Source of the DNA: an uncultured Planctomycetales bacterium
Lineage (GTDB): Bacteria > Omnitrophota > Gorgyraeia > Zapsychrales > Fredricksoniimonadaceae
DNA length: 64,000 nucleotides
Direction of reading: 5' to 3'
Assembly (NCBI GenBank): GCA_964483785.1
Contig: CAZACW010000002.1
Location: 16,666 to 80,665, forward strand
Below are positions 6,997 to 43,461 of the stretch, piece after piece. Every line of letters begins with the position of its first letter. Positions within the stretch are counted from its first letter, which is position 1. Position numbers and translations under genes: made by a program. Below the pieces are notes generated by a model, which did not search any database, was not told the origin of the DNA, and saw only the letters and a program-made list of their open reading frames with translations.

Positions 6997-7874
6997 GGGT
7001 TTAAAGTTTTGAGGATCACATCCACCGGATGGATTTTATTGAGCGTATAAAAATGCAGGCCCGGCGCCCCGCCGGATAAAAGCCCCTGGGCTTGTTCGAT
7101 GCAGAATCTGGTCCCTGCCTCGAGGGTTTTGGCGCGGTCCTCGGCGATGGGCTTAAAAATCGCATGGACCCTGTCCGGAATCGATGCCCCGCACAGGGCG
7201 CAGAAGCGCACCAGCCCGGGATAATCCGTGATCGGCAAAATCCCGGGGATAATGCGGGTCCCAACGCCTAATTTTTTCAAGCGCGCCACATAGTCGAAAT
7301 AATCCTGGTTATCGAAAAATAGCTGGGTGATGACAAAATCCGCGCCGTGGGCGATTTTATTTTTGAGATACTGGGCGTCCAAATTACGGTCAGGGCAGAG
7401 CAGATGGCCCTCGGGAAAACCCGCCACCCCGATATTGAAATCACTGCCGAAATGCTCCCGGATATAGGCCACCAATTCGAAACTAAAGTTAAAATGCTCC
7501 GGCCCCGGCTTCCAGTCGGGATTCTCCTTTGGGGGGTCTCCTCTTAGGGCCAGCACATTGCAGATCTTGCGCTGTTTCATCTCCTGCAAAATGCCCTTGA
7601 TCTCATCCCTGGTATGCATGACGCAGGTGATATGGGCCATGGAAGGCACGCGCAGGTCATTTTGAATGTGGTCTACAATGTCCAGGGTCTTGGCCCTGCT
7701 CCCACCGCCGGCGCCGTAGGTGCAGGAGATGAAATCCGGCTTCAAGGCGCAGAAATCCGGGACCATTTTCAGGAATTTCAAATGGCCTTCCTCGGTTTTC
7801 GGCGGGAAAAACTCAAAGGAAAAGGTCCGGCCTTTTTCCTTGAATATATTTTGGATTTTGGACATGGGGGTCAT
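6993..7874 (-). CDS. metF: 5,10-methylenetetrahydrofolate reductase
   Basis: 293-aa product with the MetF signature near its N-terminus ([10 protein letters not shown]). It has a 4-nt overlap with metH. Confidence 0.9.
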
Positions 7875-9253
7875 TATATCTTATTTTGCTTGCTTTGGGA
7901 GGCTAATTTTTGGTCAGCCCAGAGGCCCAGGGCGATTAAATAGAGAGGGGCCAAAGGCAGGGCGTAGCGGGTGAGGATAAAGAAGAAGGCAAAGAACAGG
8001 ATATAGAGAAGGATGAGCCATCGGATGAAGGAGGCCAGCATGGACCCTGATTTGGGAGGCGCAAACCATAATCTGATCCAGGCAGCCAAGGACAGCAGGG
8101 ACATCAGGAAGCGCAGGGCATTATTCAACAGCTTCATATCATAAATTTTCTCAAGCCATGCAGGATACTCGACAAAGCCGATCTTGGTGGATTCCCAAAA
8201 GAACATTTTCAAGCCTTCGAGGGCGGTCAGGACAAAATACTGAAAAGGATTGTGCAGGGCCTGCTGGACCGAGGCCTTAAGCAAGGCGGTATTCATGGCT
8301 TCGGGCGGCAGGTTTTGGCCGATCATTTCAGTATTTTTAGCGTAGCCTAATCGATCAGATTCCTGAAAGGACCAGAAAGCGCAATCCTGCGCGCTGAAGT
8401 GGCTGGCGCAAACCCCTTCCCCGGGCACATAGGCCAGGCCCGCCGCGAATCTTTGAGGGGTCAGGGGCTCGACCCTGCGTGCGGTACTGCCGTAAAGGGC
8501 CCAGGCGCCGCGGTTGGTGACAGCGTAATGGCCGTTGTATTTGAGATTTAATCCTTTATAGGCCGTGATTGGGACATAGTAAAAGGCAAGGCCGGCGGCC
8601 AGGCCGAGCAAAAGGGGGATGATATGAAAGGAGCGCTGTCTGAGCATATTGACCGACGAGACCACGGCCCAAATTAGCAGATAGGCCGGGCTGATGCATT
8701 CAAACACTGCCTTGACCAAGGTCGCGGCCAGGAGCATGAAGCCCAATAAGGCGCCGTAGGCAATTGACCTTGGGATATCGTTTTTCGTCACCGCTTTCCA
8801 GGCCGCGTGGCTAAAGAGGATGATGCCCAGGACCAAGGGAAACGCGGCGATTTCCGAATAGAGGCTGAAGGCCGCGTTATTAAGGGCAGGTGAAACGGCC
8901 AGATAGGCCAGCACCAGGGCACAGATGCCTTCGCGGACTTTCAAATGGCGCAGAATGAGATAGGTCAGAAGCTGGGTCAAGAACATCAGGACCATGCCGA
9001 AGATGGCCATGAACTGGACATAGGCCCAGCCAGTCACCTGTTCCAGATGCATGGCAATGGAGATCAAAAAGGGATACAAAGGCTCGCGATTGGGCCCGGT
9101 TTTAAAATAGGCGATCCATCCGTCTGTATAGAGCAATTTCCCCAGCTCTTGATAGCCGATGGCATCAAAGGCAAGGATCATCTTGGTAGCCAGGCTCAGA
9201 TAGGTCCAGTAGGCGATGGAGAGGATAAAAACTATGACAGTCGGCATTTGCAT
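7874..9253 (-). CDS. Polytopic membrane protein resembling the GT-C superfamily of glycosyltransferases (PMT/ArnT-like)
   Basis: 459 aa with about 11 predicted transmembrane segments and an N-terminal loop containing DGW..Y..GPNREPLYPFLI, which resembles GT39/GT83 loop motifs. Its TAA stop shares one nucleotide with the metF ATG. Confidence 0.4.
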   Translation of the reverse strand: MQMPTVIVFILSIAYWTYLSLATKMILAFDAIGYQELGKLLYTDGWIAYFKTGPNREPLYPFLISIAMHLEQVTGWAYVQFMAIFGMVLMFLTQLLTYLILRHLKVREGICALVLAYLAVSPALNNAAFSLYSEIAAFPLVLGIILFSHAAWKAVTKNDIPRSIAYGALLGFMLLAATLVKAVFECISPAYLLIWAVVSSVNMLRQRSFHIIPLLLGLAAGLAFYYVPITAYKGLNLKYNGHYAVTNRGAWALYGSTARRVEPLTPQRFAAGLAYVPGEGVCASHFSAQDCAFWSFQESDRLGYAKNTEMIGQNLPPEAMNTALLKASVQQALHNPFQYFVLTALEGLKMFFWESTKIGFVEYPAWLEKIYDMKLLNNALRFLMSLLSLAAWIRLWFAPPKSGSMLASFIRWLILLYILFFAFFFILTRYALPLAPLYLIALGLWADQKLASQSKQNKI

Positions 9254-9626: not shown

Positions 9627-9647
9627 GTTCATATATTGAACATTGCC

Positions 9648-10205
9648 ATGAATCCTCCTCAAGACTCCTTAGACGAACGGGAATTTGAATTGGTCAATAT
9701 CGTAGGCGCCGAACTCGGTGCCAATCAACGGGTTTTGTCCAAGCAATTGGATATTTCCCTTGGCATGACCAATATGCTGATCCGCCGTTTGGTCTCCAAG
9801 GGCTATATCCGCATCCGGCAGTTAAACAAGAAAAAGACCCAGTATATCCTCACCCCCAAAGGCTTTGCCGAAAAATACCAAAAATCCATCCGTTATACCT
9901 TAAAAACCATCCGCTCCATCGGCCTGATCCGCAATCAGTTAAACATCGTCATCCAGCGTCTTTATCAGGACGGGGAAAGGGTCTTTTTTATCCTCGGCAG
10001 TTCAGACCTGGCGGAATTGGTGGAAATGTCCCTTAGACAGCCCCAATGGGAGGGCGTGCAATTTAGCCGCGTGGAGGCAATTTCCGGCCATCCCGAAGGG
10101 GTGATCTTAATTTGCAGGGAGCAGGTCGAGGCTGTACCGTCAACCCCGGGCCGCTATGTCGATTTACTCAAGGAGCTGGCCAGCCAAAACAGGGAAGGAA
10201 TATGA
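9648..10205 (+). CDS. Winged-helix (MarR-like) transcriptional regulator
   Basis: About 185-aa product. Its N-terminal LSKQLDISLGMTNMLIRRLVSKGYIRI segment has HTH/wing character. An alternative TTG start lies at 9636. Confidence 0.5.
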   Translation: MNPPQDSLDEREFELVNIVGAELGANQRVLSKQLDISLGMTNMLIRRLVSKGYIRIRQLNKKKTQYILTPKGFAEKYQKSIRYTLKTIRSIGLIRNQLNIVIQRLYQDGERVFFILGSSDLAELVEMSLRQPQWEGVQFSRVEAISGHPEGVILICREQVEAVPSTPGRYVDLLKELASQNREGI

Positions 10206-12274
10206 TGATGCCAAAATCCGTTCCGGTTTCCTTTGTCGATTTTTCGCACACCGGCAAGACCATTGACACCCGGTTTTTCCCGTTGGGTGTGGCCTATGTG
10301 GCGGCCTATGCCAAGGAGCTGTTTAAGGAGCTCATCGACGTGGCCATTTACAAATATCCCAATGAATATTCCGCTTATTTGGACCAGACCATCCCCCAGG
10401 TGGCCTGCTTTTCCAATTTTTCCTGGAATTTCCGGCTGGGCTATGAATACGCGCGCCAGATCAAATTAAAATCCCCGCAGTCGATCACGGTCTTCGGCGG
10501 CCCCAATTACGGCCACCTGCCCCAAGAGCAGGAACAATTCCTCAAAGACCATCCCTACATCGATTTTTACATCGTGGAAGAAGGCGAATTCACTTTCGCC
10601 GCCCTGCTTAAGGAATTGATCGCGCGTGATTTTAACATCGATGCGCTCCTGCAGGACCGCCCCGGCCTGCCGGGGATCCATTATTTCAAGAACGGCTCAT
10701 TTACGCGCAATGACACCCAGCCGCGCATTCAGGAGCTGTCCGTGATCCCCTCGCCCATCCTCAACGGCATGATGGACAAATTTATCGCTGAAGAGTATAT
10801 CCCCATGATCCAGACCACCCGGGGCTGTCCCTATTCCTGCACCTTCTGCCATGACGGCAATGTGTACCAGAATAAACTGAAGCGTTTCCCCACGTCGCGC
10901 TACCAGGAGGAGATTGAATATATCGCCCGGCGCACCAAGGTGCCGCATCTGATGATCACGGACTTGAATTTCGGGATCTTTGAGGAGGATTTTGAGACCG
11001 CCCAGTTTATCGCAGAGATCAAAAAGAAATACCAATGGCCGCAGACCGTGGATTTGACCGCGGCCAAGAACAACAAGGAGCGCATCGGCCGCATCGTCGA
11101 GCTTTTCGGCAACACCTATCTCATGGGCGCCTCGGTGCAGTCCACGGACCCCGAGGTCCTGACCGCCATCAAAAGGTCCAATCTGCCCTTTGAGGAATTG
11201 GTGAGGATGGCCAAGAAATCCGCCCAATTCGGGGGCAACAGCTATTCCGAGGTGATTCTCTGCCTGCCGGGCGATTCCAAAAGGGCACATTTTAAGTCGG
11301 TCCTGGATTTGATGGACGGGCACATGGATGAGGTGCGCATGTACCAGTTCATTTTGCTCGCCGGCACCGCCGGCGGCTCCAACGAGGCCAGGCTGAAATA
11401 CGGGTATAAGACCAAATGGCGGGCCTTGCCGCGCTGTTTCGGCAAATACAAGATCTTCGGCCGGGAATTTCCCATCGCGGAAATCCATGAGGTCTGCATC
11501 GAGCACAAGACCATGAGCCATCAGGATTATTTGGACTGCCGCAAATTAAACCTGATCGTCGAGATTTTCAACAACGGCAAGGTCTTCGGCGAATTGTTCA
11601 GGTTCTCCGATTATCTGGGCATGTCCCGGGCCACCATCATCCAGGAAATTTACAACCGCGCCGTGAAAGACCAGGGGGAGATGGGGAAAATTTTCAGGGA
11701 TTTCGAGGAGAGCGAGGAAAAGAGCTTTTTCCCGTCGCGCCAGGCCCTGGAAGATTTTATTGCTGTACCGGAAAATATCGACCGCTATTTAAGGGGCGAG
11801 ATCGGCATCAATCAGATCATGACCTTTCGCGGGGAGGCGCTGTTGAACCATTTTGACTATAACGCCCGGCTGATCTTTGATGTGGTGCGCGATGAGCTTA
11901 AAAAGACCAATCAGTGGGACGAGGTCAAGGCCCTGTATTTGGATGAGCTGTGCGCCTACATCCTGGCCTGCCGCGGCGATCTTTTGAGCATCGACAAGGA
12001 GATCGTGAAAACCTGCCATTTTGATTTCGTCAAACTGTACCTGGACAATTTCACGGCCAATCCGAAGGACGTGATGGTCCAGGAAGGCATCCAGATCATC
12101 ATCGGGCATTCGCCTGAGCGGCGCAGGGAAATCGAGGAGAATTTGAAATTATACGGGCGTTCCGGCGAGGGCCTGGGCCATTACATGCAGCGCGGGAATA
12201 TTTTCAGGCTTTACCGCGAGCCGCGCTACGCACACGCGCCCATGCTGAAGGCCCAAGGGGCCGAGGTCAATTAA
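10202..12274 (+). CDS. Cobalamin-binding (class B) radical-SAM enzyme, probable methyltransferase
   Basis: The N-terminal Rossmann-like B12-binding region is followed by a CxxxCxxC cluster (TTRGCPYSCTFCHDG). The product is about 690 aa. The start overlaps the regulator's stop. Confidence 0.7.
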   Translation: MMMPKSVPVSFVDFSHTGKTIDTRFFPLGVAYVAAYAKELFKELIDVAIYKYPNEYSAYLDQTIPQVACFSNFSWNFRLGYEYARQIKLKSPQSITVFGGPNYGHLPQEQEQFLKDHPYIDFYIVEEGEFTFAALLKELIARDFNIDALLQDRPGLPGIHYFKNGSFTRNDTQPRIQELSVIPSPILNGMMDKFIAEEYIPMIQTTRGCPYSCTFCHDGNVYQNKLKRFPTSRYQEEIEYIARRTKVPHLMITDLNFGIFEEDFETAQFIAEIKKKYQWPQTVDLTAAKNNKERIGRIVELFGNTYLMGASVQSTDPEVLTAIKRSNLPFEELVRMAKKSAQFGGNSYSEVILCLPGDSKRAHFKSVLDLMDGHMDEVRMYQFILLAGTAGGSNEARLKYGYKTKWRALPRCFGKYKIFGREFPIAEIHEVCIEHKTMSHQDYLDCRKLNLIVEIFNNGKVFGELFRFSDYLGMSRATIIQEIYNRAVKDQGEMGKIFRDFEESEEKSFFPSRQALEDFIAVPENIDRYLRGEIGINQIMTFRGEALLNHFDYNARLIFDVVRDELKKTNQWDEVKALYLDELCAYILACRGDLLSIDKEIVKTCHFDFVKLYLDNFTANPKDVMVQEGIQIIIGHSPERRREIEENLKLYGRSGEGLGHYMQRGNIFRLYREPRYAHAPMLKAQGAEVN

Positions 12275-13273
12275 ATGGGCCAAAACGTTTTAGTGACAGG
12301 CGGGGCAGGGTTTATCGGCAGTCATGTGGTGGACCGTCTCTTAAGCGGCGGGCACAAGGTCACAGTCATCGATAATCTCTCAACCGGCCGCTGGGCGAAT
12401 ATCGAGCATCATCAGGCCAATCCGGATTTGACCTTTATCGAGGCGGATATCGCTGACTTTAACGCCATCGAAGGGCATTTTAAGGGCCAGCAGGTCGTTT
12501 TTCATCTGGCGGCCCTGGCAGATATTGTGCCGTCGATCGTCAACCCCCGGGGATATTATGCCGCCAATGTTTTAGGCACCATGCATGTACTGGAAGCTTC
12601 CAGGCTCCATGGGGTGGGCAGGTTTGTTTATACAGCTTCTTCATCGTGCTACGGCATTCCGGCCAAGGAGCATTACCCCACGGCGGAAACAGCGCCCATC
12701 CACACGGAATATCCTTACGCGCTGACCAAATACTTAGGAGAAACAACGGCCTTTCATTGGGCCAAGGTGTACAAACTGCCGGTGGTTTCTTTAAGACTTT
12801 TCAATGTTTACGGCCCGCGTGCGCGCACCTCAGGCACCTACGGCGCGGTGTTCGGCGTATTCCTGACCCAAAAGCTCAACGCCAAACCCTATACGGTGGT
12901 CGGCGACGGCCAACAGACCCGTGATTTCATCTATGTCAGCGACGTGGCCGAGGCTTTTGTTGCCGCCGGATTTTCCGCGGTGCAGGGAGCAATTTTCAAC
13001 GTAGGCACGGGCAAGCCGCAAAGCATCAATCATTTGGTGTCCCTGCTGGGAGGCGCAAAGGTGCATATCCCCAAAAGGCCGGGCGAGCCGGAATGCACCT
13101 GGGCGGATATCCGCAAGATCCAGGCCCAACTGGGTTTCACCCCCAAGGTCTCATTTGAAGACGGGGTGCAGAAAATTTTGAAACACATCGACTATTGGCG
13201 CGAGGCCCCGGTTTGGACGCCGCAGAGCATTCAGGAAGCGACCCAGGACTGGTTTAAATACCTCGTCCGGTAA
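12275..13273 (+). CDS. NAD-dependent nucleotide-sugar epimerase/dehydratase (extended SDR)
   Basis: GGAGFIGS glycine-rich NAD motif at the N-terminus and a YxxxK catalytic region. The product is 332 aa. Confidence 0.8.
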   Translation: MGQNVLVTGGAGFIGSHVVDRLLSGGHKVTVIDNLSTGRWANIEHHQANPDLTFIEADIADFNAIEGHFKGQQVVFHLAALADIVPSIVNPRGYYAANVLGTMHVLEASRLHGVGRFVYTASSSCYGIPAKEHYPTAETAPIHTEYPYALTKYLGETTAFHWAKVYKLPVVSLRLFNVYGPRARTSGTYGAVFGVFLTQKLNAKPYTVVGDGQQTRDFIYVSDVAEAFVAAGFSAVQGAIFNVGTGKPQSINHLVSLLGGAKVHIPKRPGEPECTWADIRKIQAQLGFTPKVSFEDGVQKILKHIDYWREAPVWTPQSIQEATQDWFKYLVR

Positions 13274-13439: not shown

Positions 13440-14465
13440 ATGAACAAGATCAAGACGGTTTTAGTGACAGGCGGGGCCGGGTACGTCGGAGCGGTGCTGG
13501 TGCCGAAGCTTTTGGACAAAGGGTACACGGTCAAGGTGCTGGATTTGTACACCTATGGCGAGGATATTTTCGATGAGATCAAGGACAGGTCCAAGTTGGT
13601 CGAAATCAAGGGCGATATCTGCGACCAGGCCCTGCTGCGTCAATCTTTGCAAGGAACTGATGCGGTCATCCATCTGGCCTGCATTTCCAATGATCCTTCC
13701 TTTGAATTGAACCCGGAATTAAGTTTGAAGGTCAATTATGAGGCCTTTGAGCCCTTGGTCAAGATCAGCCGGGAAAGCGGGGTGAAGCGCTTCATTTACG
13801 CTTCCACCTGCAGCGTCTACGGCGTCAGCGACGCGCCCGAGGTGACCGAAGACCATCCGCTTCTGCCTATTACGGATTACAACAAGTATAAGGGCCTCTG
13901 CGAACCGATCTTGGCCCGCTACCAGTCCCCGGATTTTACCACCATCACCATCCGGCCGGCCACGGTCTGCGGCTATTCGCCCCGTCAGCGCTTTGATCTG
14001 ACGGTCAATATTCTGACTAATCATGCCTATCATAACAACCGCATCAAGGTCTTTGGCGGCAAGCAGGAGCGCCCCAATATCCATATCGGCGATATCACCA
14101 ACCTTTATGTGCAATTGTTGGAACTGCCCGAGGCCAAGATCGCCGGCAAGATCTACAACGCCGGCTTTCAAAACCGCGCGGTGGCGGATATCGCCCTCAT
14201 CGTGCAGAAGATCATGGCCCAGGAATTTCCGCAGAGGCCCCAGGCCGTGATCGAGACCGTGCCTTCGGATGATATCCGCTCCTACCGGATCTCCTCGGAG
14301 AAGATCAAAAGGGAGCTGGGGTTTGTGCCCGCATTTACCATCGAGGACGCGGTGAAGGACCTGATCAAAGCGTTGAAGGCTGGAAAATACCAGGACCCCA
14401 TGAACAATCCGCGCTATTTCAACATCAAGATGCTTAAATCCATGGAAGCGCAGGCCCAGGTTTAA
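13440..14465 (+). CDS. NAD-dependent nucleotide-sugar epimerase/dehydratase (extended SDR)
   Basis: TGGAGYVG motif. The product is 341 aa. Confidence 0.8.
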   Translation: MNKIKTVLVTGGAGYVGAVLVPKLLDKGYTVKVLDLYTYGEDIFDEIKDRSKLVEIKGDICDQALLRQSLQGTDAVIHLACISNDPSFELNPELSLKVNYEAFEPLVKISRESGVKRFIYASTCSVYGVSDAPEVTEDHPLLPITDYNKYKGLCEPILARYQSPDFTTITIRPATVCGYSPRQRFDLTVNILTNHAYHNNRIKVFGGKQERPNIHIGDITNLYVQLLELPEAKIAGKIYNAGFQNRAVADIALIVQKIMAQEFPQRPQAVIETVPSDDIRSYRISSEKIKRELGFVPAFTIEDAVKDLIKALKAGKYQDPMNNPRYFNIKMLKSMEAQAQV

Positions 14466-14475
14466 AGGACCCTTT

Positions 14476-16011
14476 ATGGACGAGAAAATCAGCAGAAAAA
14501 TCCTGCCGCTCAAAGAGCTGGCCAAACGCATCGAGGACAATAAGGCCAAGGGCCGCAAGGTGGTGCAGTGCCACGGGGTTTTTGACATCGTGCATCTGGG
14601 CCATGTGCGCCATTTTAACATGGCCAAAAAAGAGGGGGATGTCCTTTTGGTCACCCTCACCGCCGACCGTTTTGTCAAGCGGGGGCCGGGCCGGCCGATC
14701 TTCAATGAGGCCCTGCGCGCCGAGCATTTGGCCTCCTTGGCCATGGTGGATTTTGTCGGCATCATCGAGTCGGCGACGGCCACGGAATGCATCAAGATCC
14801 TCAAGCCCAATTTTTACGCCAAGGGCGTTGAATACAAAAACCACAGCCAGGACATCACGGGCAAGATCTCCGAGGAAGAAGAGGCCATCCAGTCCGTCGG
14901 CGGCAAGGTCGTCTACACCGATGATATCACCTTCAGCTCTTCCCAGATCATCAACTCGTACCTGGACGTGTTTCCTCAGCGGACCGTGCGCTATCTGCAG
15001 GCCATTGAGAAGCGTTTCCCCATTGAAACGATCATCGCCTCGATCGAGAAGATCAAAAGACTCAAGGCCCTGGTGATCGGGGATGCCATTATCGATGAGT
15101 ACCATTACTGCGTGCCCATGGGCAAGTCCTCCAAGGAACATTTGGTGGTCAACCGCTACACCTCCGAAGAGATGTTTGCCGGCGGAAGTCTGGCCACGGC
15201 CAATAATGTGGCCAGCATCTGCGGCCAGGTGGATTTGGTCACCATCCTGGGCCGGGAGAACACCAAGGAAGATTTCATCCGCAGCCGCCTGGCGCCCAAT
15301 GTCAAGCCGCGCTTCTTCTATCGGCCGGACACCAATACCATCATCAAGCGCCGTTTTGTCGGCGAGAACGCCAACCGCAAGCTCTTTGAAATCTGTTACA
15401 TGAAGGACAATGATATTGCCAGGAGGGAAGAATCCAATATCGCCCGGCACTTGGACAAGGTGATCGCGGATTATGATGTGGTGATCGTCTCGGATTTCGG
15501 CCACGGCCTTTTGACTAAGAATCTGATTGACCTGATCTGCGCCAAGTCCAAATACCTGGCGGTGAATGCCCAGACCAACAGCGCCAATATCGGCTTTAAT
15601 ATGGTCACCAAATATCCGCGGGCCAACTGCGTCTGCATCGACGAGCTGGAACTGCGCTTTGCCGCGCATGATAAATTCAACGATCTGCGCGAGCTGGCCA
15701 AGACCGTTTACAGCCAAATCGGCTGCCAATACATCATTGCCACCCGGGGCTCCTACGGGTCCCTGAGCTATTCCCAAGAGCATGGTTTCCATGAAACGCC
15801 GGCCTTTTCCTACCGTGTGGTGGATGCCATCGGCGCGGGGGACGCCTTTTTCGCCTTTGTGGCCCCGTGTTTTGCCAGCGGCATGCCGCAGGAACTGGTG
15901 TCCTTTATCGGCAACGCGGTGGGGTCCTTGGCTGTGCAGATCGTCTGCAACCGCGAACCGGTGAAGACCGTGGATTTGATCAAATTTATGACGAGATTGC
16001 TGAAATGCTAA
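14476..16011 (+). CDS. Bifunctional sugar-phosphate nucleotidyltransferase plus PfkB-family sugar kinase. It is HldE/RfaE-like but with the domain order reversed.
   Basis: The N-terminal HGVFDIVHLGH motif is the HxGH cytidylyl/adenylyltransferase motif. The C-terminus has the PfkB kinase GAGD motif (DAIGAGDAF). Confidence 0.65.
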   Translation: MDEKISRKILPLKELAKRIEDNKAKGRKVVQCHGVFDIVHLGHVRHFNMAKKEGDVLLVTLTADRFVKRGPGRPIFNEALRAEHLASLAMVDFVGIIESATATECIKILKPNFYAKGVEYKNHSQDITGKISEEEEAIQSVGGKVVYTDDITFSSSQIINSYLDVFPQRTVRYLQAIEKRFPIETIIASIEKIKRLKALVIGDAIIDEYHYCVPMGKSSKEHLVVNRYTSEEMFAGGSLATANNVASICGQVDLVTILGRENTKEDFIRSRLAPNVKPRFFYRPDTNTIIKRRFVGENANRKLFEICYMKDNDIARREESNIARHLDKVIADYDVVIVSDFGHGLLTKNLIDLICAKSKYLAVNAQTNSANIGFNMVTKYPRANCVCIDELELRFAAHDKFNDLRELAKTVYSQIGCQYIIATRGSYGSLSYSQEHGFHETPAFSYRVVDAIGAGDAFFAFVAPCFASGMPQELVSFIGNAVGSLAVQIVCNREPVKTVDLIKFMTRLLKC

Positions 16012-17132
16012 ACAAAATCAAAATTCCCTATACGCATTTGGGGGCCCAGCACGCTAGGATCAAGCAGAGGCTGATGGCGGCCGTGGAAGAGGTCTTGGAA
16101 AGCGGCAAATTCATCCTGGGCCCGCCGGTCGAGGCCTTTGAGGCCCGCTTCGCGTCATTGTGCGGCAGGAAATTTGCCGTCGGCGTCGGCAACGGCACGG
16201 ACGCCCTGGTCCTGGCCTTAAAAATTTTAGGCATCGGGCCCGGCGATGAAGTGATCACCGTGGCCAATACCTTTGTTTCAACGGTCAGCAGTATTGTGAT
16301 GGCAGGGGCAAGGCCGGTATTCGTCGATGTCCGGGACGATTACAATATCGACCCTGGTCTCGTCGAGAAGGCCATCACCCCTCGGACCAAGGCCATTTTA
16401 CCCGTGCATTTGACCGGCCGGCCGGCGGACATGGACCCGCTCATGGCCCTGGCCAGGCAGTACGGCTTGAAGGTGGTCGAAGACTGTGCCCAGGCCGTCG
16501 GCGCCCAGTATAAGGGCCAGAAGGTTGGCAGTTTCAGCGATATCGCGTGCTTTAGCCTTCATCCTTTGAAAATCCTCAATGCCTGCGGCGACGGCGGGGT
16601 GATGGTCACGGATAATCCGCAATATGAGGCTGCATGCAGGGTCCTGCGCGATAACGGCATGAAGGACCGCGGTGAATGCGCGGCCTTTTCCAGCAATTCC
16701 AGGCTGGACTCCATCCAGGCCGCCATTTTGCTGGTGAAAATGGATTATATCGAGGCCTGGACCCAGAAGAGAATCGCCAACGCGCAATTCTACCAGCAGG
16801 CCTTGGCCAAGATGGAGCATATCCATTGTCCGGCTGACCAGCCTTACGTAAAATCCGTATACTCGTCCTTTGTGATCCAGGCCAAGCAGCGCGATCAGCT
16901 TAAAAGTTTTCTCGAGGAGAAGGGGATCGCCACCAAGATCCATTATCCCATCCCTGTGCATTTACAGCCTGCGGCGCAAAGCCTTGGCTACAGGCAGGGG
17001 GATTTGCCGGTGACGGAAAAACAAGCCCGGCAAATCCTAAGCCTTCCGGTTTATCCGGAGTTGACCCAGGAAGAACTTAAAGAAATTGTCCGGTTATTGG
17101 GGGCATTTGATCTGGAGAAAGTCAACGCATGA
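16005..17132 (+). CDS. DegT/DnrJ/EryC1/StrS-family PLP-dependent sugar aminotransferase
   Basis: GxGDEVI motif, a conserved lysine region and a length of about 375 aa. The start overlaps the previous gene. Confidence 0.85.
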   Translation: MLNKIKIPYTHLGAQHARIKQRLMAAVEEVLESGKFILGPPVEAFEARFASLCGRKFAVGVGNGTDALVLALKILGIGPGDEVITVANTFVSTVSSIVMAGARPVFVDVRDDYNIDPGLVEKAITPRTKAILPVHLTGRPADMDPLMALARQYGLKVVEDCAQAVGAQYKGQKVGSFSDIACFSLHPLKILNACGDGGVMVTDNPQYEAACRVLRDNGMKDRGECAAFSSNSRLDSIQAAILLVKMDYIEAWTQKRIANAQFYQQALAKMEHIHCPADQPYVKSVYSSFVIQAKQRDQLKSFLEEKGIATKIHYPIPVHLQPAAQSLGYRQGDLPVTEKQARQILSLPVYPELTQEELKEIVRLLGAFDLEKVNA

Positions 17133-18232
17133 AGGTGCCTTATTCGTATTTAAAAGAGCAATTCGCCGATATCAGCCCGTATTTAAACGGGATGAAAAAA
17201 TTGGTGCGAAGCGAGGATTTGACCCTGGGCAAGCCGGTCGGCGAGTTTGAAGGCCGCTTCGCCAAACTTACGGGCCTGCCCTATGCTGTGGGTGTTAGCA
17301 CCGGCACGGACGCGCTGATTTTGTCGTTGAAAATTTTAGGCATCGGGCCCGGGGATGAGGTGATCACCACCCCCAATACCTTTATCGCGACAGTGGGGGC
17401 CATTGCCATGACCGGCGCCAGGCCGGTGTTTGTGGATAATAACGACGAGCATACGATCGACGCGGATAAAATCGAGCGGGCCATAACCCGCCGCACCAAG
17501 GCCATCCTGCCCGTGCATTTAAGCGGAACGCCGGCGGATATGCCGGCCATCATGACCATTGCCCGCCGTCACGGCCTGCATGTCGTGGAGGACGCGGCCC
17601 AGGCCATCCTGGCCTCCATTGACGGCAAGCATGTCGGCTCCTGGGGAGCGGCCGCGGGTTTCAGCCTTCATCCGTTGAAAAATTTGAACGTCTGGGGCGA
17701 CGGAGGCATGATTGTGACGCGCTCCAAGTCCCTGTACCGGAAACTAAGGCTGCTGCGCAATCACGGCTTGGTCAGCCGGGACAAGGTGGAATTCTTCGGC
17801 CATAATTGCCGCCTGGATTCCCTGCAAGCCGTGATCGCCAACCGCCTGATCACGCAGGCCCATGCGATCACCCAGCGGCGCATACGCCATGCCGAGTTTT
17901 ATGACCGCGCGTTAAGTTCCTTGTCCGGGGCCATCAAGGTGCCGCCCCGGCGCAAGAACGTGCAGAGGGTCTACCATACCTATGTCATCCATGCCAGGCG
18001 CCGCGATGCGTTGTTAAAATATCTGCTGGCCAAGGGCATCAGCGCCAAGGTGCATTATCCGATACCCTTGCACCTGCAAAAGGCGGCCAGGTATTTGGGT
18101 TATAAAAAAGGGGATTTTCCCGTCTGTGAAGCGCATTGCAGGGACATCATCACCCTGCCGGTGCACCAGCATCTGACCCAGGGTCAGCTGGATTATGTGA
18201 AGGACTGCATCCATCGGTTTTACCGAAGCTGA
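17129..18232 (+). CDS. DegT/DnrJ/EryC1/StrS-family sugar aminotransferase (second paralogue)
   Basis: Same family motifs as the first DegT gene. It has a 4-nt overlap with the upstream gene. Confidence 0.85.
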   Translation: MKVPYSYLKEQFADISPYLNGMKKLVRSEDLTLGKPVGEFEGRFAKLTGLPYAVGVSTGTDALILSLKILGIGPGDEVITTPNTFIATVGAIAMTGARPVFVDNNDEHTIDADKIERAITRRTKAILPVHLSGTPADMPAIMTIARRHGLHVVEDAAQAILASIDGKHVGSWGAAAGFSLHPLKNLNVWGDGGMIVTRSKSLYRKLRLLRNHGLVSRDKVEFFGHNCRLDSLQAVIANRLITQAHAITQRRIRHAEFYDRALSSLSGAIKVPPRRKNVQRVYHTYVIHARRRDALLKYLLAKGISAKVHYPIPLHLQKAARYLGYKKGDFPVCEAHCRDIITLPVHQHLTQGQLDYVKDCIHRFYRS

Positions 18233-18250: not shown

Positions 18251-19324
18251 ATGAATACATCGTTAGCAGATAACAGCCAGTTGAGCGAAGAGCAGGTGAT
18301 CAAGGCGGCCCAGGAAGGCCTGGGGCAGAAGGTGCTGGCTGTTTCTAAAATCGGCAAGGGCAGAAACAGCAAGGTCTACCAGATTACATGCCCCGACGGG
18401 CAGTATGCGGCCAAATTTTATTTTCAACATGCTTCCGATACCCGTGACCGCATGGGCACGGAATACGGGAGTTTTTCATTTTTGTGGGAACAAGGCTTGC
18501 GGGTGGTGCCCAGGCCCGTGGCCTTGATCAAGTCCCAGGGCTGCGCCTTTTATGAATTTATTTGCGGTTCATCCATGGCCGGGGACAAGACCAAGGCAGA
18601 CGTGGATGCTGCCGCGGATTTTTTGGAAACCCTGGCCCGCTTGTCCGCCAAGGCCCAGAGCGGGGAATTTGCCGCGGCCTCGGCCGCCTGTTTCAGTTTC
18701 AATGATTGCGTGCAGAACATCCAGGGCCGGCTAGACCGCATCCAGATCCAGCAGGGCGCAGGGGAATATGATCTGCTGCACCGGTATCTGAGGGAAGAAT
18801 TCATCCCCTTGTTTAAGACAGTGTCCGCATGGTCCCTGGCTCATCTCCAGGAACAGGGGATCACCGGGGATCAGATCATCCCCAGGACGTACCAGACCTT
18901 GAGCCCGTCGGATTTTGGTTTCCACAATGCCCTGCGCCAAAGCGAAGGCAGGATCGTATTTTTGGATTTTGAATATTTCGGCTGGGATGATCCGGCTAAA
19001 ATGACCGCGGATTTTCTTTGGCACCCTAATCCCGCGATGAATTTGAAGGAAGACCTGAAAAACCATTTTGTCCGGCGCATGGCCGCGATTTTCGGCAAGG
19101 ACCCGCATTTTAAAACAAGATTGCAATGGCTTTATCCTGTCTTTGGCCTGATGTGGTCCTTGATCTGTTTAAACGAATTCATCACCGTGGACGCCCAGCG
19201 CCGCGGTTTTGCCCAGCCCCAGGTCAAAAACAGCAGCGCGGTGCGGCTGCAGCAGCTGGATGAGGCCAAACGCGTCAGCGACAAGATCAAACGCAGTTAT
19301 TTGGATTTTCCTTATGCCTACTAA
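18251..19324 (+). CDS. Phosphotransferase-family kinase with an APH/choline-kinase-like fold
   Basis: Brenner-like motif region (DFGFHNAL) and a DFEYFGWDD metal-binding motif. An alternative TTG start lies at 18233. Confidence 0.55.
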   Translation: MNTSLADNSQLSEEQVIKAAQEGLGQKVLAVSKIGKGRNSKVYQITCPDGQYAAKFYFQHASDTRDRMGTEYGSFSFLWEQGLRVVPRPVALIKSQGCAFYEFICGSSMAGDKTKADVDAAADFLETLARLSAKAQSGEFAAASAACFSFNDCVQNIQGRLDRIQIQQGAGEYDLLHRYLREEFIPLFKTVSAWSLAHLQEQGITGDQIIPRTYQTLSPSDFGFHNALRQSEGRIVFLDFEYFGWDDPAKMTADFLWHPNPAMNLKEDLKNHFVRRMAAIFGKDPHFKTRLQWLYPVFGLMWSLICLNEFITVDAQRRGFAQPQVKNSSAVRLQQLDEAKRVSDKIKRSYLDFPYAY

Positions 19325-20129
19325 GTTAGACGCCAGGTCCAGGCAGTTGCGCTGGAAAATTGTGGACATATTAAAGGCCAGCCGCGCCGGCCATGTCGGC
19401 GCCGCCTTTTCTTTAGTGGAGATTTTGCGGGTCTTATACGACGATGTTTTGCGTTTCGACCCCCAAGACCCGCATTGGCCCCAGAGGGACCGCTGCATCT
19501 TAAGCAAGGGGCACGGCTGTCTGGCCCTGTATGTGATGCTGGCGGACAAAGGTTTTTTCCCTGAGGCGCATCTGTGGAGATTCACCGCGGCCGACGGCCT
19601 TTTAGGCGGGCACCCGGAACACAAGGTCCCAGGAGTGGAGGCCTCGACCGGCAGTCTCGGTCATGGCTTTTCCATTGGGGTGGGCATGGCCATCAACGCG
19701 CGGTATGAGCAAAGCAGCTCCCGCGTCTTTGTGGTCATCGGCGACGGGGAATCCAACGAAGGCTCGATTTGGGAAGCGGCCCTGTGCTCAGCCAAACATA
19801 AGCTGGACCAGCTGACCGTGATGGTGGACTATAACAAGCACCAATCCTATGGTCCGACCAAGGAGGTCCTGGACATGGAACCTTTTGCGGATAAATGGCG
19901 GGCCTTTGGCTTCGCTGTCCGGGAATGCGACGGGCATGATGTGGAGGCGCTTAAACGCACTTTGGAGGCGCTTCCTTTTGAGCCGGGCAAGCCCAATGCC
20001 GTTATCTGCCATACGGTCAAGGGCAAGGGTGTCAGTTATGTGGAAAATAATTTGAAATGGCATCACCGCAGTAAAATGACCGACGAGGAGATCGACGGTT
20101 TGTTTAAGGCCTTGGAGGCCGAGGTTTAA
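19314..20129 (+). CDS. Transketolase, N-terminal (TPP-binding) subunit
   Basis: GHxGxxxS-like region and the GDGE TPP motif (VVIGDGESNEG). Confidence 0.85.
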   Translation: MPTKLDARSRQLRWKIVDILKASRAGHVGAAFSLVEILRVLYDDVLRFDPQDPHWPQRDRCILSKGHGCLALYVMLADKGFFPEAHLWRFTAADGLLGGHPEHKVPGVEASTGSLGHGFSIGVGMAINARYEQSSSRVFVVIGDGESNEGSIWEAALCSAKHKLDQLTVMVDYNKHQSYGPTKEVLDMEPFADKWRAFGFAVRECDGHDVEALKRTLEALPFEPGKPNAVICHTVKGKGVSYVENNLKWHHRSKMTDEEIDGLFKALEAEV

Positions 20130-20132
20130 GTC

Positions 20133-21071
20133 ATGCGCAAAACAGCGTTAGACCAGGTTTATGCATTGGCCCGCCAGGATGGGCGCATTTTTTTCATCGG
20201 CTCAGATTTGGGCTGCGGCACCCTGCAGAAATTTAAGGAAGAGATGCCGGGGCGTTTTTTGATGGAGGGTGTGAGCGAAGCCATGTGGGCCGCGCTGGCT
20301 GCCGGATTGGCCTTGGAAGGTAGGTTTGTATATCTACACACCATCGCCAGCGTTTTTAGCCGCCCCTGTTTTGTGCGAATTGGCCTGGAGCTGGCCCTGC
20401 ACAGGGCCAGGGTCCGTTTGATCGCCAAGGGCGGGGGGCTGGTGTACGCGCCGCTGGGGCCCACCCATTTGGCCATCGATGATCTGGCCATTTTGCGCGC
20501 GGTGCCGGGCATGGCCGTGGCAGCGCCCTGCGATGCTGATGAGATGAAGCGGCTGATGCCTCTGACCGTGGAACATCCAGGGCCGGTGTACATCCGCCTG
20601 GCCAAGGGAGGGGACATCATTGTTTCTTCAGACCGCGTGCCTTTGCAATTCGGCAAGGCCCTTGCAGTGCGCGAAGGCAGGGACGCCTTGATCGTGACCA
20701 CGGGCGTCACCCTGCAGATGGCTTTAAAGGCGGCGGATGTGCTGGCCAACGAGGGCCTGGAAGTGGGAGTACTGCATATGCCCTTTATCAAGCCCTTTGA
20801 TCAAGAGGCCTTGCTGCGTTTTGCAGAACAAACTTCCAATATCATCACCGTGGAAGAACATCTGGTGACCGGCGGCCTGGGCAGTGCCGTGGCCGAGGTG
20901 CTGATGGAAGCCAATTTCGATGCGCCGAAAAATTTCCGCCGCATCGGCATTCCCGACGCCTTTGCCGAAAGTTACGGGAACCAGCAGGCCCTGATGGCCC
21001 GGTACGGGATCACGGCCGAAAACATTTGTGCGGTTGTCAAACATTTGCGTCATCTGAAAATGGCGGTATAA
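20133..21071 (+). CDS. Transketolase, C-terminal (pyrimidine-binding) subunit
   Basis: Typical split-Tkt partner of 312 aa, starting 4 nt after the N-terminal subunit. Confidence 0.85.
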   Translation: MRKTALDQVYALARQDGRIFFIGSDLGCGTLQKFKEEMPGRFLMEGVSEAMWAALAAGLALEGRFVYLHTIASVFSRPCFVRIGLELALHRARVRLIAKGGGLVYAPLGPTHLAIDDLAILRAVPGMAVAAPCDADEMKRLMPLTVEHPGPVYIRLAKGGDIIVSSDRVPLQFGKALAVREGRDALIVTTGVTLQMALKAADVLANEGLEVGVLHMPFIKPFDQEALLRFAEQTSNIITVEEHLVTGGLGSAVAEVLMEANFDAPKNFRRIGIPDAFAESYGNQQALMARYGITAENICAVVKHLRHLKMAV

Positions 21072-21141: not shown

Positions 21142-21212
21142 TCACATATTCTTGCATTCCTTGAAGAATAGGGAATATGTCGAACAAGCAACAGTTTCTC
21201 AAGGAGGTTGAG

Positions 21213-21875
21213 ATGGGCCGGATGCTGGAATTTTTTACACCCTTGCACAAAAGGACCAAGCGCAATTATATCGAGCGCATGATGAACAAAAAGGTCGAGT
21301 GCATGAACAAGGCATGTGAGTATGAATTCGATTATTGGGACGGGGACCGCAGCTGCGGTTACGGCGGCTATAAATACGACGGCCGCTGGAAACCCGTGGC
21401 CCAAAAATTGATCGACACCTACGGGATCAAGGACGGTTTCAAGATCCTGGACGTGGGCTGCGGCAAGGCGCATTTGTTGTACGAGATCAAGCAATTGCTG
21501 CCGAAGGTCGAGGTGACCGGCATCGATATTTCCAGGCACGGGTTGAGCGATGCGCCGGAGGCCGTCCGCCCGTTTTTGGTCCGGCACCGGGCCCAGGACC
21601 CCTATCCCTGGGGCAATCAGCATTTTGACCTGGTGATCAGCCTGGGTACTTTACACAATCTGCACATTTACGAATTGGAAACAGCGCTCAAGGAAATCGA
21701 GCGCGTGGGCAAGGCAAAATACATCATGGTGGAAGGCTACCGCAACAAGGAAGAACTTTTTAATTTGGAATGCTGGGCCTTGACCGCGGTGTCCTTTTAT
21801 GAGCCGCAGGCCTGGATCTGGCTGTACCGCCATTTCGGCTACAGCGGCGATTACGAATTCATTTATTTTGAATAA
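21213..21875 (+). CDS. Class I SAM-dependent methyltransferase
   Basis: VLDVGCGKA glycine-rich SAM motif. A strong SD (AAGGAGG) lies 5 nt before this ATG. The ORF track's 21177 start runs into the repeat. Confidence 0.7.
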   Translation: MGRMLEFFTPLHKRTKRNYIERMMNKKVECMNKACEYEFDYWDGDRSCGYGGYKYDGRWKPVAQKLIDTYGIKDGFKILDVGCGKAHLLYEIKQLLPKVEVTGIDISRHGLSDAPEAVRPFLVRHRAQDPYPWGNQHFDLVISLGTLHNLHIYELETALKEIERVGKAKYIMVEGYRNKEELFNLECWALTAVSFYEPQAWIWLYRHFGYSGDYEFIYFE

Positions 21876-21884: not shown

Positions 21885-22922
21885 ATGAAAGCAGCGATTT
21901 TAGCGGAATTGAACAAACCCCTGGTGCTGGCGGACATTGCCCTGCCGCAGCGGCTGGCTTTCGGCCAGGTCCGGGTGAAAATTTTTTACAGCGGCATCTG
22001 CGGGGCCCAGCTCAATGAGATCGAGGGGGCCAAGGGCCCGGACAAATTCCTGCCGCATCTCTTGGGCCACGAAGGCTCAGGGACCGTCGTGGACGTGGGG
22101 CCGGGCGTCAAGACGGTCAAGAAGGACGATCATGTGGTCCTGCACTGGCGCCCCAGCAACGGCATCCAGTCCGAGACGCCCGCCTATGACTGGCAGGGCC
22201 GCAAGGTCAACGCGGGCTGGGTCACCACCTTCAACGAAGAGGCCGTGATTTCCGAAAACCGCCTGACACCTATTCCTAAGGACTTTGATCTGCGCTTAGC
22301 ACCCCTGTTCGGCTGTGCGGTGACCACGGCCATGGGCGTTGTCAATAATGACGCGCGCCTCAAGATCGGACAGTCCGTCGTGATTTTTGGCGCCGGCGGG
22401 GTGGGGCTGAACATCGTGCAGGCCGCGGCCATGGTTTCAGCCCATCCCATCGTGGCCATTGATCTGTTCGATGAAAAATTGGACATGGCCAAAAAATTCG
22501 GCGCCACCCATGTGCTGAATTCCAAAAAAACGCCTGGGGTGGCTTCCTGGGTCGCGCAGTACATCCCCAAGGGCCTGGCGGACGTGGTGATCTACACCAC
22601 CGGCAATGCCCGCGTGATCGAGCTGGCCTATGAGCTCACCCATCCCGACGGGAAGACCATCCTGGTGGGCGTGCCGCTCAAGGGGGAAAATATTTCCATT
22701 TATTCCCTGCCCCTGCATTTTAACAAGGTGCTCAAAGGCTCGCACGGCGGCAGCAGCGAACCTCATTTGGACATTCCGCGCTATGTGGCCCTGTGCCAGT
22801 CAGGGAAGATGACCCTGGAAGGCCTGGTGACGGATGAATTTCCCTTGTCCAAGATCAATGAGGCCCTGGATAAGGTGCGCAGCGGCCAGAGCGGGCGGGT
22901 GATCATCAATATGAAGGCCTGA
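21885..22922 (+). CDS. Zinc-dependent alcohol/polyol dehydrogenase (MDR family)
   Basis: GHEGSG zinc-ligand motif and the GAGGVG Rossmann motif. Confidence 0.8.
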   Translation: MKAAILAELNKPLVLADIALPQRLAFGQVRVKIFYSGICGAQLNEIEGAKGPDKFLPHLLGHEGSGTVVDVGPGVKTVKKDDHVVLHWRPSNGIQSETPAYDWQGRKVNAGWVTTFNEEAVISENRLTPIPKDFDLRLAPLFGCAVTTAMGVVNNDARLKIGQSVVIFGAGGVGLNIVQAAAMVSAHPIVAIDLFDEKLDMAKKFGATHVLNSKKTPGVASWVAQYIPKGLADVVIYTTGNARVIELAYELTHPDGKTILVGVPLKGENISIYSLPLHFNKVLKGSHGGSSEPHLDIPRYVALCQSGKMTLEGLVTDEFPLSKINEALDKVRSGQSGRVIINMKA

Positions 22923-30282: not shown

Positions 30283-30300
30283 AACGCAGGGAGGTAAGGT

Positions 30301-34702: not shown

Positions 34703-34728
34703 TATGCATTCGAGCGTAAGGAGTGAAG

Positions 34729-39315: not shown

Positions 39316-39319
39316 GCCT

Positions 39320-40507: not shown

Positions 40508-40512
40508 GGAGC

Positions 40513-43269: not shown

Positions 43270-43284
43270 GATGAGGAGGGGACC

Positions 43285-43458: not shown

Positions 43459-43461
43459 CCC

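Follow-up and report, generated by a model that had tools for sequence, protein, structure and literature searches.

What does an enzyme with two HldE-like halves, joined in the opposite order, make for its cell? The question is raised by g10, a gene at positions 14476..16011 of a 64,000-nt stretch of DNA from an uncultured bacterium of the phylum Omnitrophota (assembly GCA_964483785.1, contig CAZACW010000002.1, positions 16,666 to 80,665; "the window" hereafter means this whole stretch). The original prediction read g10 as an HldE-like enzyme with its nucleotidyltransferase (NTase) domain ahead of its PfkB kinase domain, the product of an independent fusion event, and took genes at both ends of the island for a scattered but complete toolkit for nucleotide-activated heptose. 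We conclude, with a probability of about 0.62, that g10 is an anomeric sugar-phosphate kinase and sugar-1-phosphate NTase, i.e., an HldE paralogue that would catalyze the second and fourth steps of a heptose pathway of the GmhA/HldE/GmhB type, whose product co-transcribed enzymes would then tailor. This conclusion rests on the architecture of g10, its intact motifs and closest relatives, the gene fusions seen in its family and its conserved neighbors.

The Domain Order of g10

The gene begins with an ATG that has an AAAGGA ribosome-binding site 8 nt to its 5' side, and its stop codon shares 7 nt (ATGCTAA) with the ATG of the next gene, g11, an overlap that places g10 and g11 in one operon. The gene and its two domains are as follows:

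14476..16011, plus strand: g10, a 511-aa HldE-like bifunctional enzyme, NTase and kinase in permuted order (open reading frame, Pfam, alignment to HldE, AlphaFold2)
14572..14952, plus strand: N-terminal cytidylyltransferase-like NTase domain, HldC/HldE-domain-II-like, aa 33-159 (PF01467, TIGR02199)
15067..15939, plus strand: C-terminal PfkB kinase domain, HldA/HldE-domain-I-like, aa 198-488 (PF00294, TIGR02198, Foldseek)

Pfam finds PF01467 (CTP_transf_like; E 3.8e-12) at aa 33-159, with the motif HGVFDIVHLGH at aa 33-43, and PF00294 (PfkB; E 9.7e-20) C-terminal to it at aa 198-488, with GAGD at aa 453-456. BLASTP against Escherichia coli K-12 HldE returns two segments in swapped order—aa 13-146 against HldE 326-454 (34% identity) and aa 189-487 against HldE 4-295 (22% identity). 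Taken together, the Pfam order and the swapped segments bear out the claimed reversal: g10 is NTase first and kinase second, the reverse of HldE. A frameshift or assembly artefact was considered and is ruled out by the ~510-aa architecture, which is kept in thousands of homologues, and by a confident AlphaFold2 model (pLDDT 90.7, pTM 0.77), built from a 40-sequence family alignment, in which the inter-domain linker is structured.

Two minus-strand open reading frames (14434-15792, 452 aa; 13719-14810, 363 aa) overlap g10 and the upstream gene g09. Their status as genes is unsupported; the translations are of low complexity, rich in Gly, Asp and Leu, and effects of codon composition account best for these frames. 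Gene callers that go by length might choose them wrongly.

A Large NTase-First Family

How common is the reversed fusion? A word-indexed protein search with g10 gave 5,400 matches at E <= 1e-5; all of the top 120 carry PF01467 followed by PF00294 in ~510 aa and are 67-100% identical to g10. Among representatives clustered at 50% identity, an exhaustive search found 16,877 matches at E <= 1e-3, of which 1,227 reach E <= 1e-30; the top 150 representatives are all collinear with g10 from end to end (33-47% identity, 320-543 bits). The reversed fusion is therefore common, as judged from the best 120 proteins and the best 150 representatives, and the NTase-first order occurs in at least 150 representative clusters and probably in ~1,200. 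In a scan of one genome per species, the family appeared in Omnitrophota (most matches, 68-86% identity) and also in Auribacterota, Actinomycetota, Brocadiales, a deltaproteobacterium and a Methanomassiliicoccales archaeon. The NTase-first fusion is a large, old, multi-phylum family, not something confined to this island; it may have arisen by independent fusion or by permutation of an HldE ancestor.

Database names for its members are generic ("adenylyltransferase/cytidyltransferase family protein," "PfkB family carbohydrate kinase," "rfaE bifunctional protein ... domain"). The papers that our literature search found describe neither the reversed architecture nor a cluster that combines transketolase, heptose and PfkB functions.

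Each Half Is Closest to HldE

Hidden Markov model scores and structure ranking served as a proxy for placing each half relative to HldA, HldC and HldE. On g10, the NCBIfam HldE model NF008454 scores 168.3 bits (cut-off 521), TIGR02198 (rfaE_dom_I) 124.7 bits (cut-off 345) and TIGR02199 (rfaE_dom_II) 102.1 bits (cut-off 181.5); all other NCBIfam models score at most 39 bits (hexose kinase 38.8, ribokinase 35, TagD 28). In a sequence search of the PDB, the kinase half comes closest to Burkholderia HldA (4e84), and Foldseek of the g10 model again ranks B. cenocepacia HldA (4e84) first (E 4.4e-24, TM 0.86, 23% identity); PfkB-2 and the ribokinases follow at ~1e-16, a gap of ~8 orders of magnitude. 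For the N-terminal half, the PDB sequence matches are 3glv (44 bits), ethanolamine-phosphate cytidylyltransferase (41.5 bits) and HldC (40 bits). A ribokinase- or fructokinase-like kinase paired with a TagD-like transferase, the combination that the original prediction named as pointing away from heptose, is not what these scores indicate for g10: by NCBIfam and Foldseek, both halves lie nearest the halves of HldE.

Residue conservation was read from a 130-member alignment that included the permuted E. coli HldE. In the NTase domain, G34, F36, D37, H40, G42, H43 and R81 (i.e., GxFDxxHxGH plus R81) are invariant or nearly so. The kinase domain keeps G202, D207, Y209, GG236/237, K291, R293, D340, E392, D450 and G453-x-G455-D456, and with them the motifs GDxxxDxY, the GG switch and GxGD throughout the family. 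Of these residues, G236/G237 align with HldE G51/G52, the conserved K291/R293 with HldE K106/R108, and G453-x-G455-D456 with HldE G261-x-G263-D264. To judge from these residues, both activities of g10 are probably intact.

Isomerase, Phosphatase and Dehydrogenase Partners

Gene fusions and gene neighborhoods indicate the pathway to which the family belongs. In the relative P0126 (699 aa), a GmhB-like HAD-IIIA domain is fused to NTase and kinase; in P0142 (764 aa), NTase and kinase are followed by a GmhA-like SIS domain; and P0338 (539 aa) joins a SIS of the P0142 type to a short-chain dehydrogenase/reductase (SDR) of the g09 type. We compared the window genes by tblastn with 24 genome loci, in ~13 of which a GmhA-like SIS (here "type A") starts at or overlaps the stop codon of the fusion. 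GmhA is the best NCBIfam model for these SIS proteins (101 bits, cut-off 209), and they keep GmhA S55, H61, D94, S119, S124 and H180, with the swaps E65D and Q172E. At one locus (L038), where the fusion is 33% identical, a HAD, a SIS, a g08-type SDR and the fusion stand together with nothing else recognizable, a minimal set with the same enzymes as the classical ADP-L-glycero-D-manno-heptose route. Wherever a context was sampled, down to fusions of 33% identity, an SDR lies next to the fusion. The Rosetta-stone fusions, the SIS adjacency and the minimal set at L038 together tie the family to a GmhA/GmhB-type pathway.

Partners were counted over the 16 loci with enough flank (hereafter, the informative loci; L023 was left out because its match is split into short high-scoring segment pairs). 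A thiamine diphosphate (ThDP) enzyme is present in 15 of these, a SIS in 14, a g08-type SDR and a g09-type SDR in 10 each, a g16-type methyltransferase in nine and a GmhB-like HAD in one. Across the 24 loci the conserved block runs g06, g08, g10, g09, (g11/g12), g13, g14/g15, g16, g17, and the members that surround g10 in the window are these:

9636..10205, plus strand: g06, winged-helix HTH_24 protein, possible regulator (PF13412); heads the conserved block, 6/16 loci
12275..13273, plus strand: g08, GalE-like SDR, 4-epimerase-like, the second SDR partner of ancient standing (Pfam Epimerase; best PDB matches are UDP-hexose 4-epimerases)
13440..14465, plus strand: g09, Cj1427-like SDR directly upstream of g10 (PDB sequence search, Foldseek)
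16005..17132, plus strand: g11, DegT/DnrJ/EryC1 aminotransferase (PF01041, E 1e-117), translationally coupled to g10
17129..18232, plus strand: g12, second DegT-family aminotransferase (PF01041, E 1.6e-101), conserved in L002, L005 and L023
18233..19324, plus strand: g13, APH-like phosphotransferase (PF01636)
19314..20129, plus strand: g14, transketolase-like N-terminal (ThDP/PP) subunit (PF00456, E 2e-44)
20133..21071, plus strand: g15, transketolase-like C-terminal (Pyr + C) subunit with a non-canonical acceptor site (PF02779/PF02780)
21177..21875, plus strand: g16, S-adenosylmethionine (SAM)-dependent methyltransferase (Methyltransf_31/25/11), 9/16 loci
21885..22922, plus strand: g17, Zn-dependent alcohol dehydrogenase (PF00107/PF08240)

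The SDR next to g10 bears on the nature of the sugar. The best PDB sequence match of g09 is 6vo6/6vo8 (146.7 bits against 96.5 for the next, ~33% identity), entries whose titles give Cj1427 of Campylobacter jejuni with GDP-D-glycero-D-manno-heptose. The same entries come first in Foldseek with a model of g09 (pLDDT 80; E 2.8e-22, 31-34% identity), with GalE-type epimerases only a little way behind in structure. Enzymes of the Cj1427 type are nucleotide-heptose C4-dehydrogenases whose tightly bound NADH is recycled by alpha-ketoglutarate. The similarity of g09 to Cj1427, in sequence and in the model, thus favors heptose in a supportive, not a decisive, way. SDRs of the g09 type adjoin the fusion even in distant members (L037, L026, L028; 46-57% identity), and orthologues of g08 (61-63% identical) do so in L038, L030, L019 and the archaeal locus L024. 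If a 4-keto-heptose nucleotide is formed, g11, g12, g16 and, further along the island, g18 and g20 could readily be expected to use it.

Upstream of g08, g06 is conserved in Omnitrophota loci, as is g13 (41-55%) between the fusion and the transketolase; g11 keeps its place in L002, L005, L007 and L023, and g17 is 76-89% identical in L002, L004, L005 and L023, the window's clade.

At three loci, a standalone HldC-like NTase of ~160 aa lies directly upstream of the fusion (L013 9995-10477, L018 9995-10474, L021 ~10001-10468). These proteins are 59-65% identical to each other and 40-47% to the fusion's N-domain; the N-domains that resemble them most are those of the divergent L019, L020 and L024 fusions. 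An N-terminal extension of the L013, L018 and L021 fusions was considered and rejected, the extra match being this separate gene. Two NTases per cluster may mean two nucleotide donors.

A Split Transketolase Accompanies the Fusion

A ThDP enzyme also travels with the fusion, and its presence at 15 of the 16 informative loci is a strong linkage. In the window it is the split transketolase g14/g15, of which g14 keeps TktA H26, H66, H100, D155 and N185, and g15 keeps R358, D381, E411 and H473. The NCBIfam transketolase model gives 252 + 171 bits for the two subunits (cut-off 488). At the acceptor and phosphate site, g15 has S385 replaced by G, H461 by G, D469 by L and R520 by K; among the cluster-associated homologues, compared by the C-subunit alone at 15 cluster loci, H461G is found in 15/15 and D469L in 13/15, S385 is lost and R520 varies. 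In TktA, we take H461, R520 and S385 to bind the acceptor phosphate and D469 to read the acceptor 2-hydroxyl. The changes at H461, D469, S385 and R520 make ribose-5-P an unlikely acceptor.

The identity and number of the ThDP enzymes vary. A conserved E1 alpha/beta-like pair takes the place of the transketolase in L014, L021 and L028, L017 has both types, L018 has two split transketolases, and none occurs near the fusion in L038 and several other members. The split transketolase had been counted as part of the toolkit, and its conserved synteny with the fusion is real; its supposed synthesis of sedoheptulose-7-P is unproven, given the non-canonical acceptor residues and the E1-like replacement at some loci.

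Two readings of its role may be drawn by analogy. It might make an unusual ketose phosphate precursor, as a transaldolase does in lincosamide GDP-octose synthesis and may do in the other cassette described below, or it might transfer a C2 unit to a 4-keto sugar nucleotide, in the manner of AviB1/AviB2, Pau11/Pau12 or YerE. That the ThDP enzymes differ in number and type between loci, and are absent from the L038 set, leans toward tailoring, i.e., toward the second of these; we know of no transketolase-family enzyme that acts on nucleotide sugars.

The Proposed Pathway

A heptose-type pathway, as put forward in the original prediction, is the best reading of the fusions, the conserved neighbors and the Cj1427-like SDR, and its core would have four steps. 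In step 1, a GmhA-like SIS, a partner observed at the level of the family, would convert a ketoheptose phosphate (sedoheptulose-7-P) to heptose-7-P. In step 2, the PfkB domain of g10, present with its catalytic residues, would phosphorylate the anomeric O1 of this presumed substrate, and in step 3 a phosphatase, such as the one fused in P0126, would remove the distal phosphate. The HxGH domain at the N-terminus of g10 would then convert sugar-1-P and NTP to NDP-beta-heptose (step 4), the beta-anomer being assumed by analogy with HldE. Similarity to Cj1427 suggests that g09 would oxidize C4 to give a 4-keto-heptose (step 5), and gene content points to transamination by g11/g12, epimerization by g08, methylation by g16 and possibly C2 transfer by g14/g15 (step 6). 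The identity of the sugar, the nucleotide, the order of tailoring and the choice of isomerase and phosphatase in this genome are likewise predictions. The product is most likely an activated seven-carbon sugar destined for surface glycans.

Several observations weigh against this pathway. The HldE-model scores of g10 reach 30-55% of the equivalog cut-offs and, as all HldE, GmhA and GmhB model scores fall far below theirs, the substrate could be a related but different sugar. The kinase has invariants of its own at positions where HldE differs (K220, D340-x-G342-H343-G344 and N364/Q366/N368/N371/G373), and these fall in the sugar-binding region (N-x-Q-x-N-x-x-N-x-G, 364-373). The hallmark of heptose NTases, (F/L)xxGxSTT, is missing: the window protein has D-D-I-T-F-S-S-S, without the Gly and without an Arg at position 5, and the family consensus at this site is F-T-x-x-[IV]-T-[FY]-S-S-[ST]. 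Substrate and nucleotide specificity may, on this sequence evidence, differ from those of HldE. Neither a type-A SIS nor a GmhB-like HAD (query derived from P0126) was found in the 64-kb window, an adjacent type-A SIS is also missing in the closest relatives, and GmhB-like HADs are rare in the clusters generally (1/16 loci). Queries with E. coli WaaC/F/Q found no GT9 heptosyltransferase in the window. Known heptose pathways contain nothing that corresponds to the near-universal ThDP partner, and our literature search found no experimental work on any family member. The claim that the window holds everything needed for an activated heptose is mostly not borne out: no dedicated isomerase or phosphatase for g10 can be identified there; these may be encoded elsewhere in the genome, or g53, a SIS protein at the far end of the window, may be shared.

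Other Explanations

A rival explanation is the same chemistry on another sugar: the transketolase-like enzyme would build a ketose phosphate (octulose-8-P from hexose-6-P, or a ketose from a 2-deoxy or 2-amino aldose), a SIS would isomerize it, and g10 would make an NDP-octose or higher sugar. Linkage to the fusion is no looser for the ThDP enzyme than for the isomerase (15/16 against 14/16 loci), the systematic departure of its acceptor pocket from canonical transketolase (H461G, D469L, S385 lost) fits only an acceptor other than ribose-5-P, and all pathway enzymes stay below the heptose equivalog cut-offs. There is precedent in the lincosamides, where the LmbR transaldolase, LmbN isomerase, LmbK phosphatase and LmbO NTase lead to GDP-octose (PMC12945683), and an analogous cassette of SIS, HAD, transaldolase, GHMP kinase and NTase is widespread. 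We nevertheless consider this explanation unlikely, as L038 and several other loci keep SIS, SDR and fusion without a ThDP enzyme nearby, the E1 alpha/beta-like partner in L014, L021 and L028 cannot make an isomerizable ketose, L017 and L018 have two ThDP enzymes, and the closest relative of g09 acts on a heptose nucleotide.

The lack of an isomerase or GmhB-like phosphatase next to g10, in the window and in its nearest relatives, and the overall rarity of GmhB-like HADs would suit a two-step salvage activator, in which the kinase phosphorylates O1 of a free sugar and the NTase makes the NDP-sugar directly, with neither isomerase nor phosphatase required. Such an activator would resemble in function FKP, a bifunctional fucokinase/GDP-fucose pyrophosphorylase, which likewise has its NTase first. 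Such a role is quite improbable for a family in which a SIS is adjacent or fused in most members, a GmhB-like HAD is fused in P0126 and K291/R293 (HldE K106/R108) are conserved; a biosynthetic operon with aminotransferases and methyltransferases also argues for de novo synthesis. Less probable still is an enzyme that handles neither a heptose nor a sugar-1-P, i.e., a ribokinase/fructokinase-like kinase with a TagD- or ethanolamine-phosphate-cytidylyltransferase-like NTase, serving glycan decoration of the CDP-glycerol, CDP-ribitol or CDP-ethanolamine kind. The N-terminal PDB matches discriminate poorly on this point (44, 41.5 and 40 bits for 3glv, ethanolamine-phosphate cytidylyltransferase and HldC), but rfaE_dom_II outscores TagD by 102 to 28 bits and rfaE_dom_I outscores ribokinase by 125 to 35, HldA leads the structural matches by ~8 orders of magnitude, and the partners are GmhA-like, GmhB-like and Cj1427-like. 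The GmhA/HldE/GmhB-type heptose pathway remains the reading that we prefer.

Comparison with Known Systems

Compared with HldE itself, the NTase-first family has the same two domain families, the same catalytic motifs and links to GmhA-like, GmhB-like and SDR proteins; it differs in domain order, in its low identity to the E. coli enzyme (34% for the NTase, 22% for the kinase) and in occurring mainly outside Proteobacteria, in glycan-tailoring clusters instead of lipopolysaccharide-core loci. In Burkholderia, HldA (4e84) is the best relative of the kinase half, and HldC-type proteins (5x9q) are among the best of the NTase half, yet the two are separate proteins there and are fused here, NTase first, with 23% identity to HldA. 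The summaries of a study on HENases, NTase-containing heptose-activating enzymes of bacteria and archaea (Tang et al., 2024; PMC11573728, PMC11461863), list a monodomain NTase, a didomain kinase/NTase and a tridomain isomerase/kinase/NTase type. Tri-domain relatives exist in the g10 family as well (P0126, P0142), whereas NTase-first, HAD-NTase-kinase and NTase-kinase-SIS forms go unmentioned in those summaries, and the hallmark (F/L)xxG(R)STT that they give is not conserved in the g10 family.

The GDP-heptose modification pathway of C. jejuni, which comprises the C4-dehydrogenase Cj1427, epimerases and reductases, offers in Cj1427 the closest relative of g09. Its logic, in which a 4-keto-heptose nucleotide is formed first and modified afterwards, agrees with the set of aminotransferases, epimerase-like SDRs and methyltransferases in the window. 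It differs in activating the alpha-anomer through the GHMP kinase HddA and the PF00483 guanylyltransferase HddC, with no PfkB/HxGH pair and no ThDP enzyme. For the ThDP enzyme, the nearest analogies lie in the ThDP-dependent C2 branching of 4-keto nucleotide sugars, with YerE and the proposed E1 alpha/beta-like enzymes AviB1/AviB2 and Pau11/Pau12 (PMC4753412). As there, a two-subunit ThDP enzyme is encoded beside an enzyme predicted to generate a 4-keto sugar nucleotide, and E1-like pairs occur at some loci of the family; unlike those, the window enzyme is transketolase-like, such that its donor would be a ketose or hydroxypyruvate rather than pyruvate, and C2 branching is a putative role for it. 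Bifunctional heptose kinase/NTases are a known kind of enzyme; for the association of the NTase-first family with a non-canonical transketolase-like enzyme, no counterpart has been described.

A Separate Cassette at the End of the Window

The SIS, transaldolase and HAD genes near the end of the window had been assigned to the same pathway as g10:

62151-62759: g53, SIS protein (TIGR00441, 50.5 bits against a cut-off of 209)
62729-63445: TAL/FSA-type transaldolase (domain search)
63426 onward: HAD hydrolase, HAD_2/HAD-IA phosphoglycolate-phosphatase-like

Only ~31% identical to type-A SIS, g53 keeps S55, H61, D94, S119, S124 and H180, shows E65D, Q172E, T120V and S121G, and has a 6-residue insertion in the phosphate loop. 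No GmhB model was among the matches of the HAD, which is of the HAD-IA and not the HAD-IIIA GmhB type. A metagenome scan with g53 found at least 588 relatives at 58-76% identity, and 0/46 metagenome loci (>=5 kb) carrying a g53-type SIS also had a relative of the fusion. The block is a conserved cassette of its own, which removes it from the supposed heptose toolkit of g10. The genes do lie at the two ends of the island at roughly the positions given for them; the labels GmhA and GmhB-like are only loosely justified. The g53-type block beside the fusion cluster in L007 was considered as support for the toolkit and rejected as weak evidence, because L007 carries the common, autonomous form of the cassette, in which a GHMP kinase and an NTP_transferase are already included.

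That common cassette runs GHMP kinase, PF00483 NTP_transferase, SIS, GmhB-like HAD and transaldolase, with dehydrogenases in front, and resembles an HddA/HddC-type or LmbP/O/N/K/R-type module in having a kinase and NTase of its own. Very widespread and tightly conserved, it occurs at L041 4142-11858 and at ~35 other metagenome loci (L053-L119) from soil, freshwater and marine sources, with a full content of SDR, UDPG/GDP-Man dehydrogenase, adh_short, GFO oxidoreductase, GHMP kinase, PF00483 NTP_transferase, g53-type SIS, GmhB-like HAD-IIIA and transaldolase; a dedicated transaldolase in such a non-antibiotic context is worth recording.

The window itself carries another type of cassette. Its last module (g49-g55, 58314-64000) encodes a GFO oxidoreductase, a methyltransferase-like protein, the SIS, the transaldolase and the HAD, and the window ends inside it. 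Related modules (L040 7944-17846, L046, L057, L052, L044) continue with an HpcH/HpaI pyruvate aldolase, two SDRs, CTP_transf_3, a 2-hydroxyacid dehydrogenase and a carbamoyltransferase, and have the arrangement g51-g52-SIS-transaldolase-(HpcH/HpaI aldolase)-HAD-SDR-SDR-CTP_transf_3; homologues of g44 precede g51-g55 in L040, L046 and L052. The KdsB-like g50 (59330-60115) passes NF003952 (246.6 > 193). With g50, the window-type cassette suggests, by its gene content, an unusual CMP-activated ulosonic acid made from a transaldolase-derived sugar plus pyruvate.

Other Genes of the Island

Downstream of the g10 cluster, the island has a further DegT aminotransferase (g18) and a TylC3/NovU-type sugar C-methyltransferase (g20, PF08421 + PF08484, 24582-25835), after which come a radical SAM/SPASM enzyme and an SDR; the presence of g20 would fit a 4-keto nucleotide sugar that is C-methylated by enzymes of this island. 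A set for the supply and use of 3'-phosphoadenosine 5'-phosphosulfate (PAPS) spans 28816-31613 (sulfotransferase 28816-30282, adenosine 5'-phosphosulfate kinase 30301-30816, CysQ-like Inositol_P phosphatase 30780-31613), which in a glycan island suggests a sulfated glycan, and an MsbA-like ABC exporter (32930-34702) comes after it. Positions 34723-48519 hold a complete nonulosonic-acid (legionaminic/pseudaminic-like) module with a 4,6-dehydratase, DegT, CBS-NTP_transferase, NeuB (38287-39315), a hydrolyzing 2-epimerase, a HisF/HisH-like pair, an MptE-like/Maf-type putative transferase (43462-44484), a B12-radical SAM enzyme, a GFO oxidoreductase, CTP_transf_3 and an SDR.

Three consecutive large open reading frames at 48516-54185 (530 aa, minus strand; 729 aa; 599 aa) have no Pfam match even at E <= 1, and the same is true of those at 31595-32917, 41932-43269 and 7874-9253. 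No glycosyltransferase of the GT2, GT4 or GT9 families was recognized in the 64-kb island, the Maf-like protein aside; the island's glycosyltransferases may be among these Pfam-less frames.

Beside the island lie a B12-dependent methionine synthase, MetH (1,237 aa), and MTHFR (3283-7874, minus strand), and the island near them is rich in SAM methyltransferases and B12/radical-SAM enzymes (10112-12274, 25832-26836, 44497-46080). MetH and MTHFR may provide local methyl-cycle support; with g05, they also flank the cluster in L006 and L023.

Implications

NDP-heptoses are building blocks of bacterial surface glycans, and ADP-, CDP- and UDP-heptose are potent innate-immune agonists that act via ALPK1. 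Because the NTase-first fusion is almost always found with a non-canonical transketolase-like enzyme and a Cj1427-like dehydrogenase, an uncharacterized modified-heptose or higher-sugar pathway is indicated. More tentatively, and with doubts that outweigh our confidence, we suggest that the conserved core (NTase-kinase fusion, GmhA-like isomerase, Cj1427-like C4-dehydrogenase and non-canonical two-subunit ThDP enzyme) is an undescribed route to a higher-carbon or branched nucleotide sugar. The transketolase-like enzyme, or the E1 alpha/beta-like enzyme of other lineages, would either add a C2 unit to an NDP-4-keto-heptose, to give a C4-branched nine-carbon sugar, or build an unusual C8/C9 ketose phosphate for the other enzymes to activate. 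If true, the C4-branched nine-carbon product would be the heptose analogue of yersiniose or paulomycose, and a transketolase-family enzyme in nucleotide-sugar tailoring would be new enzymology. The NTase-first family is apparently unstudied and sits below every curated HldE, GmhA and GmhB threshold. With the generic names that its members bear, these sub-threshold scores mean that the capacity of the lineages that carry it to make heptose is probably under-counted.

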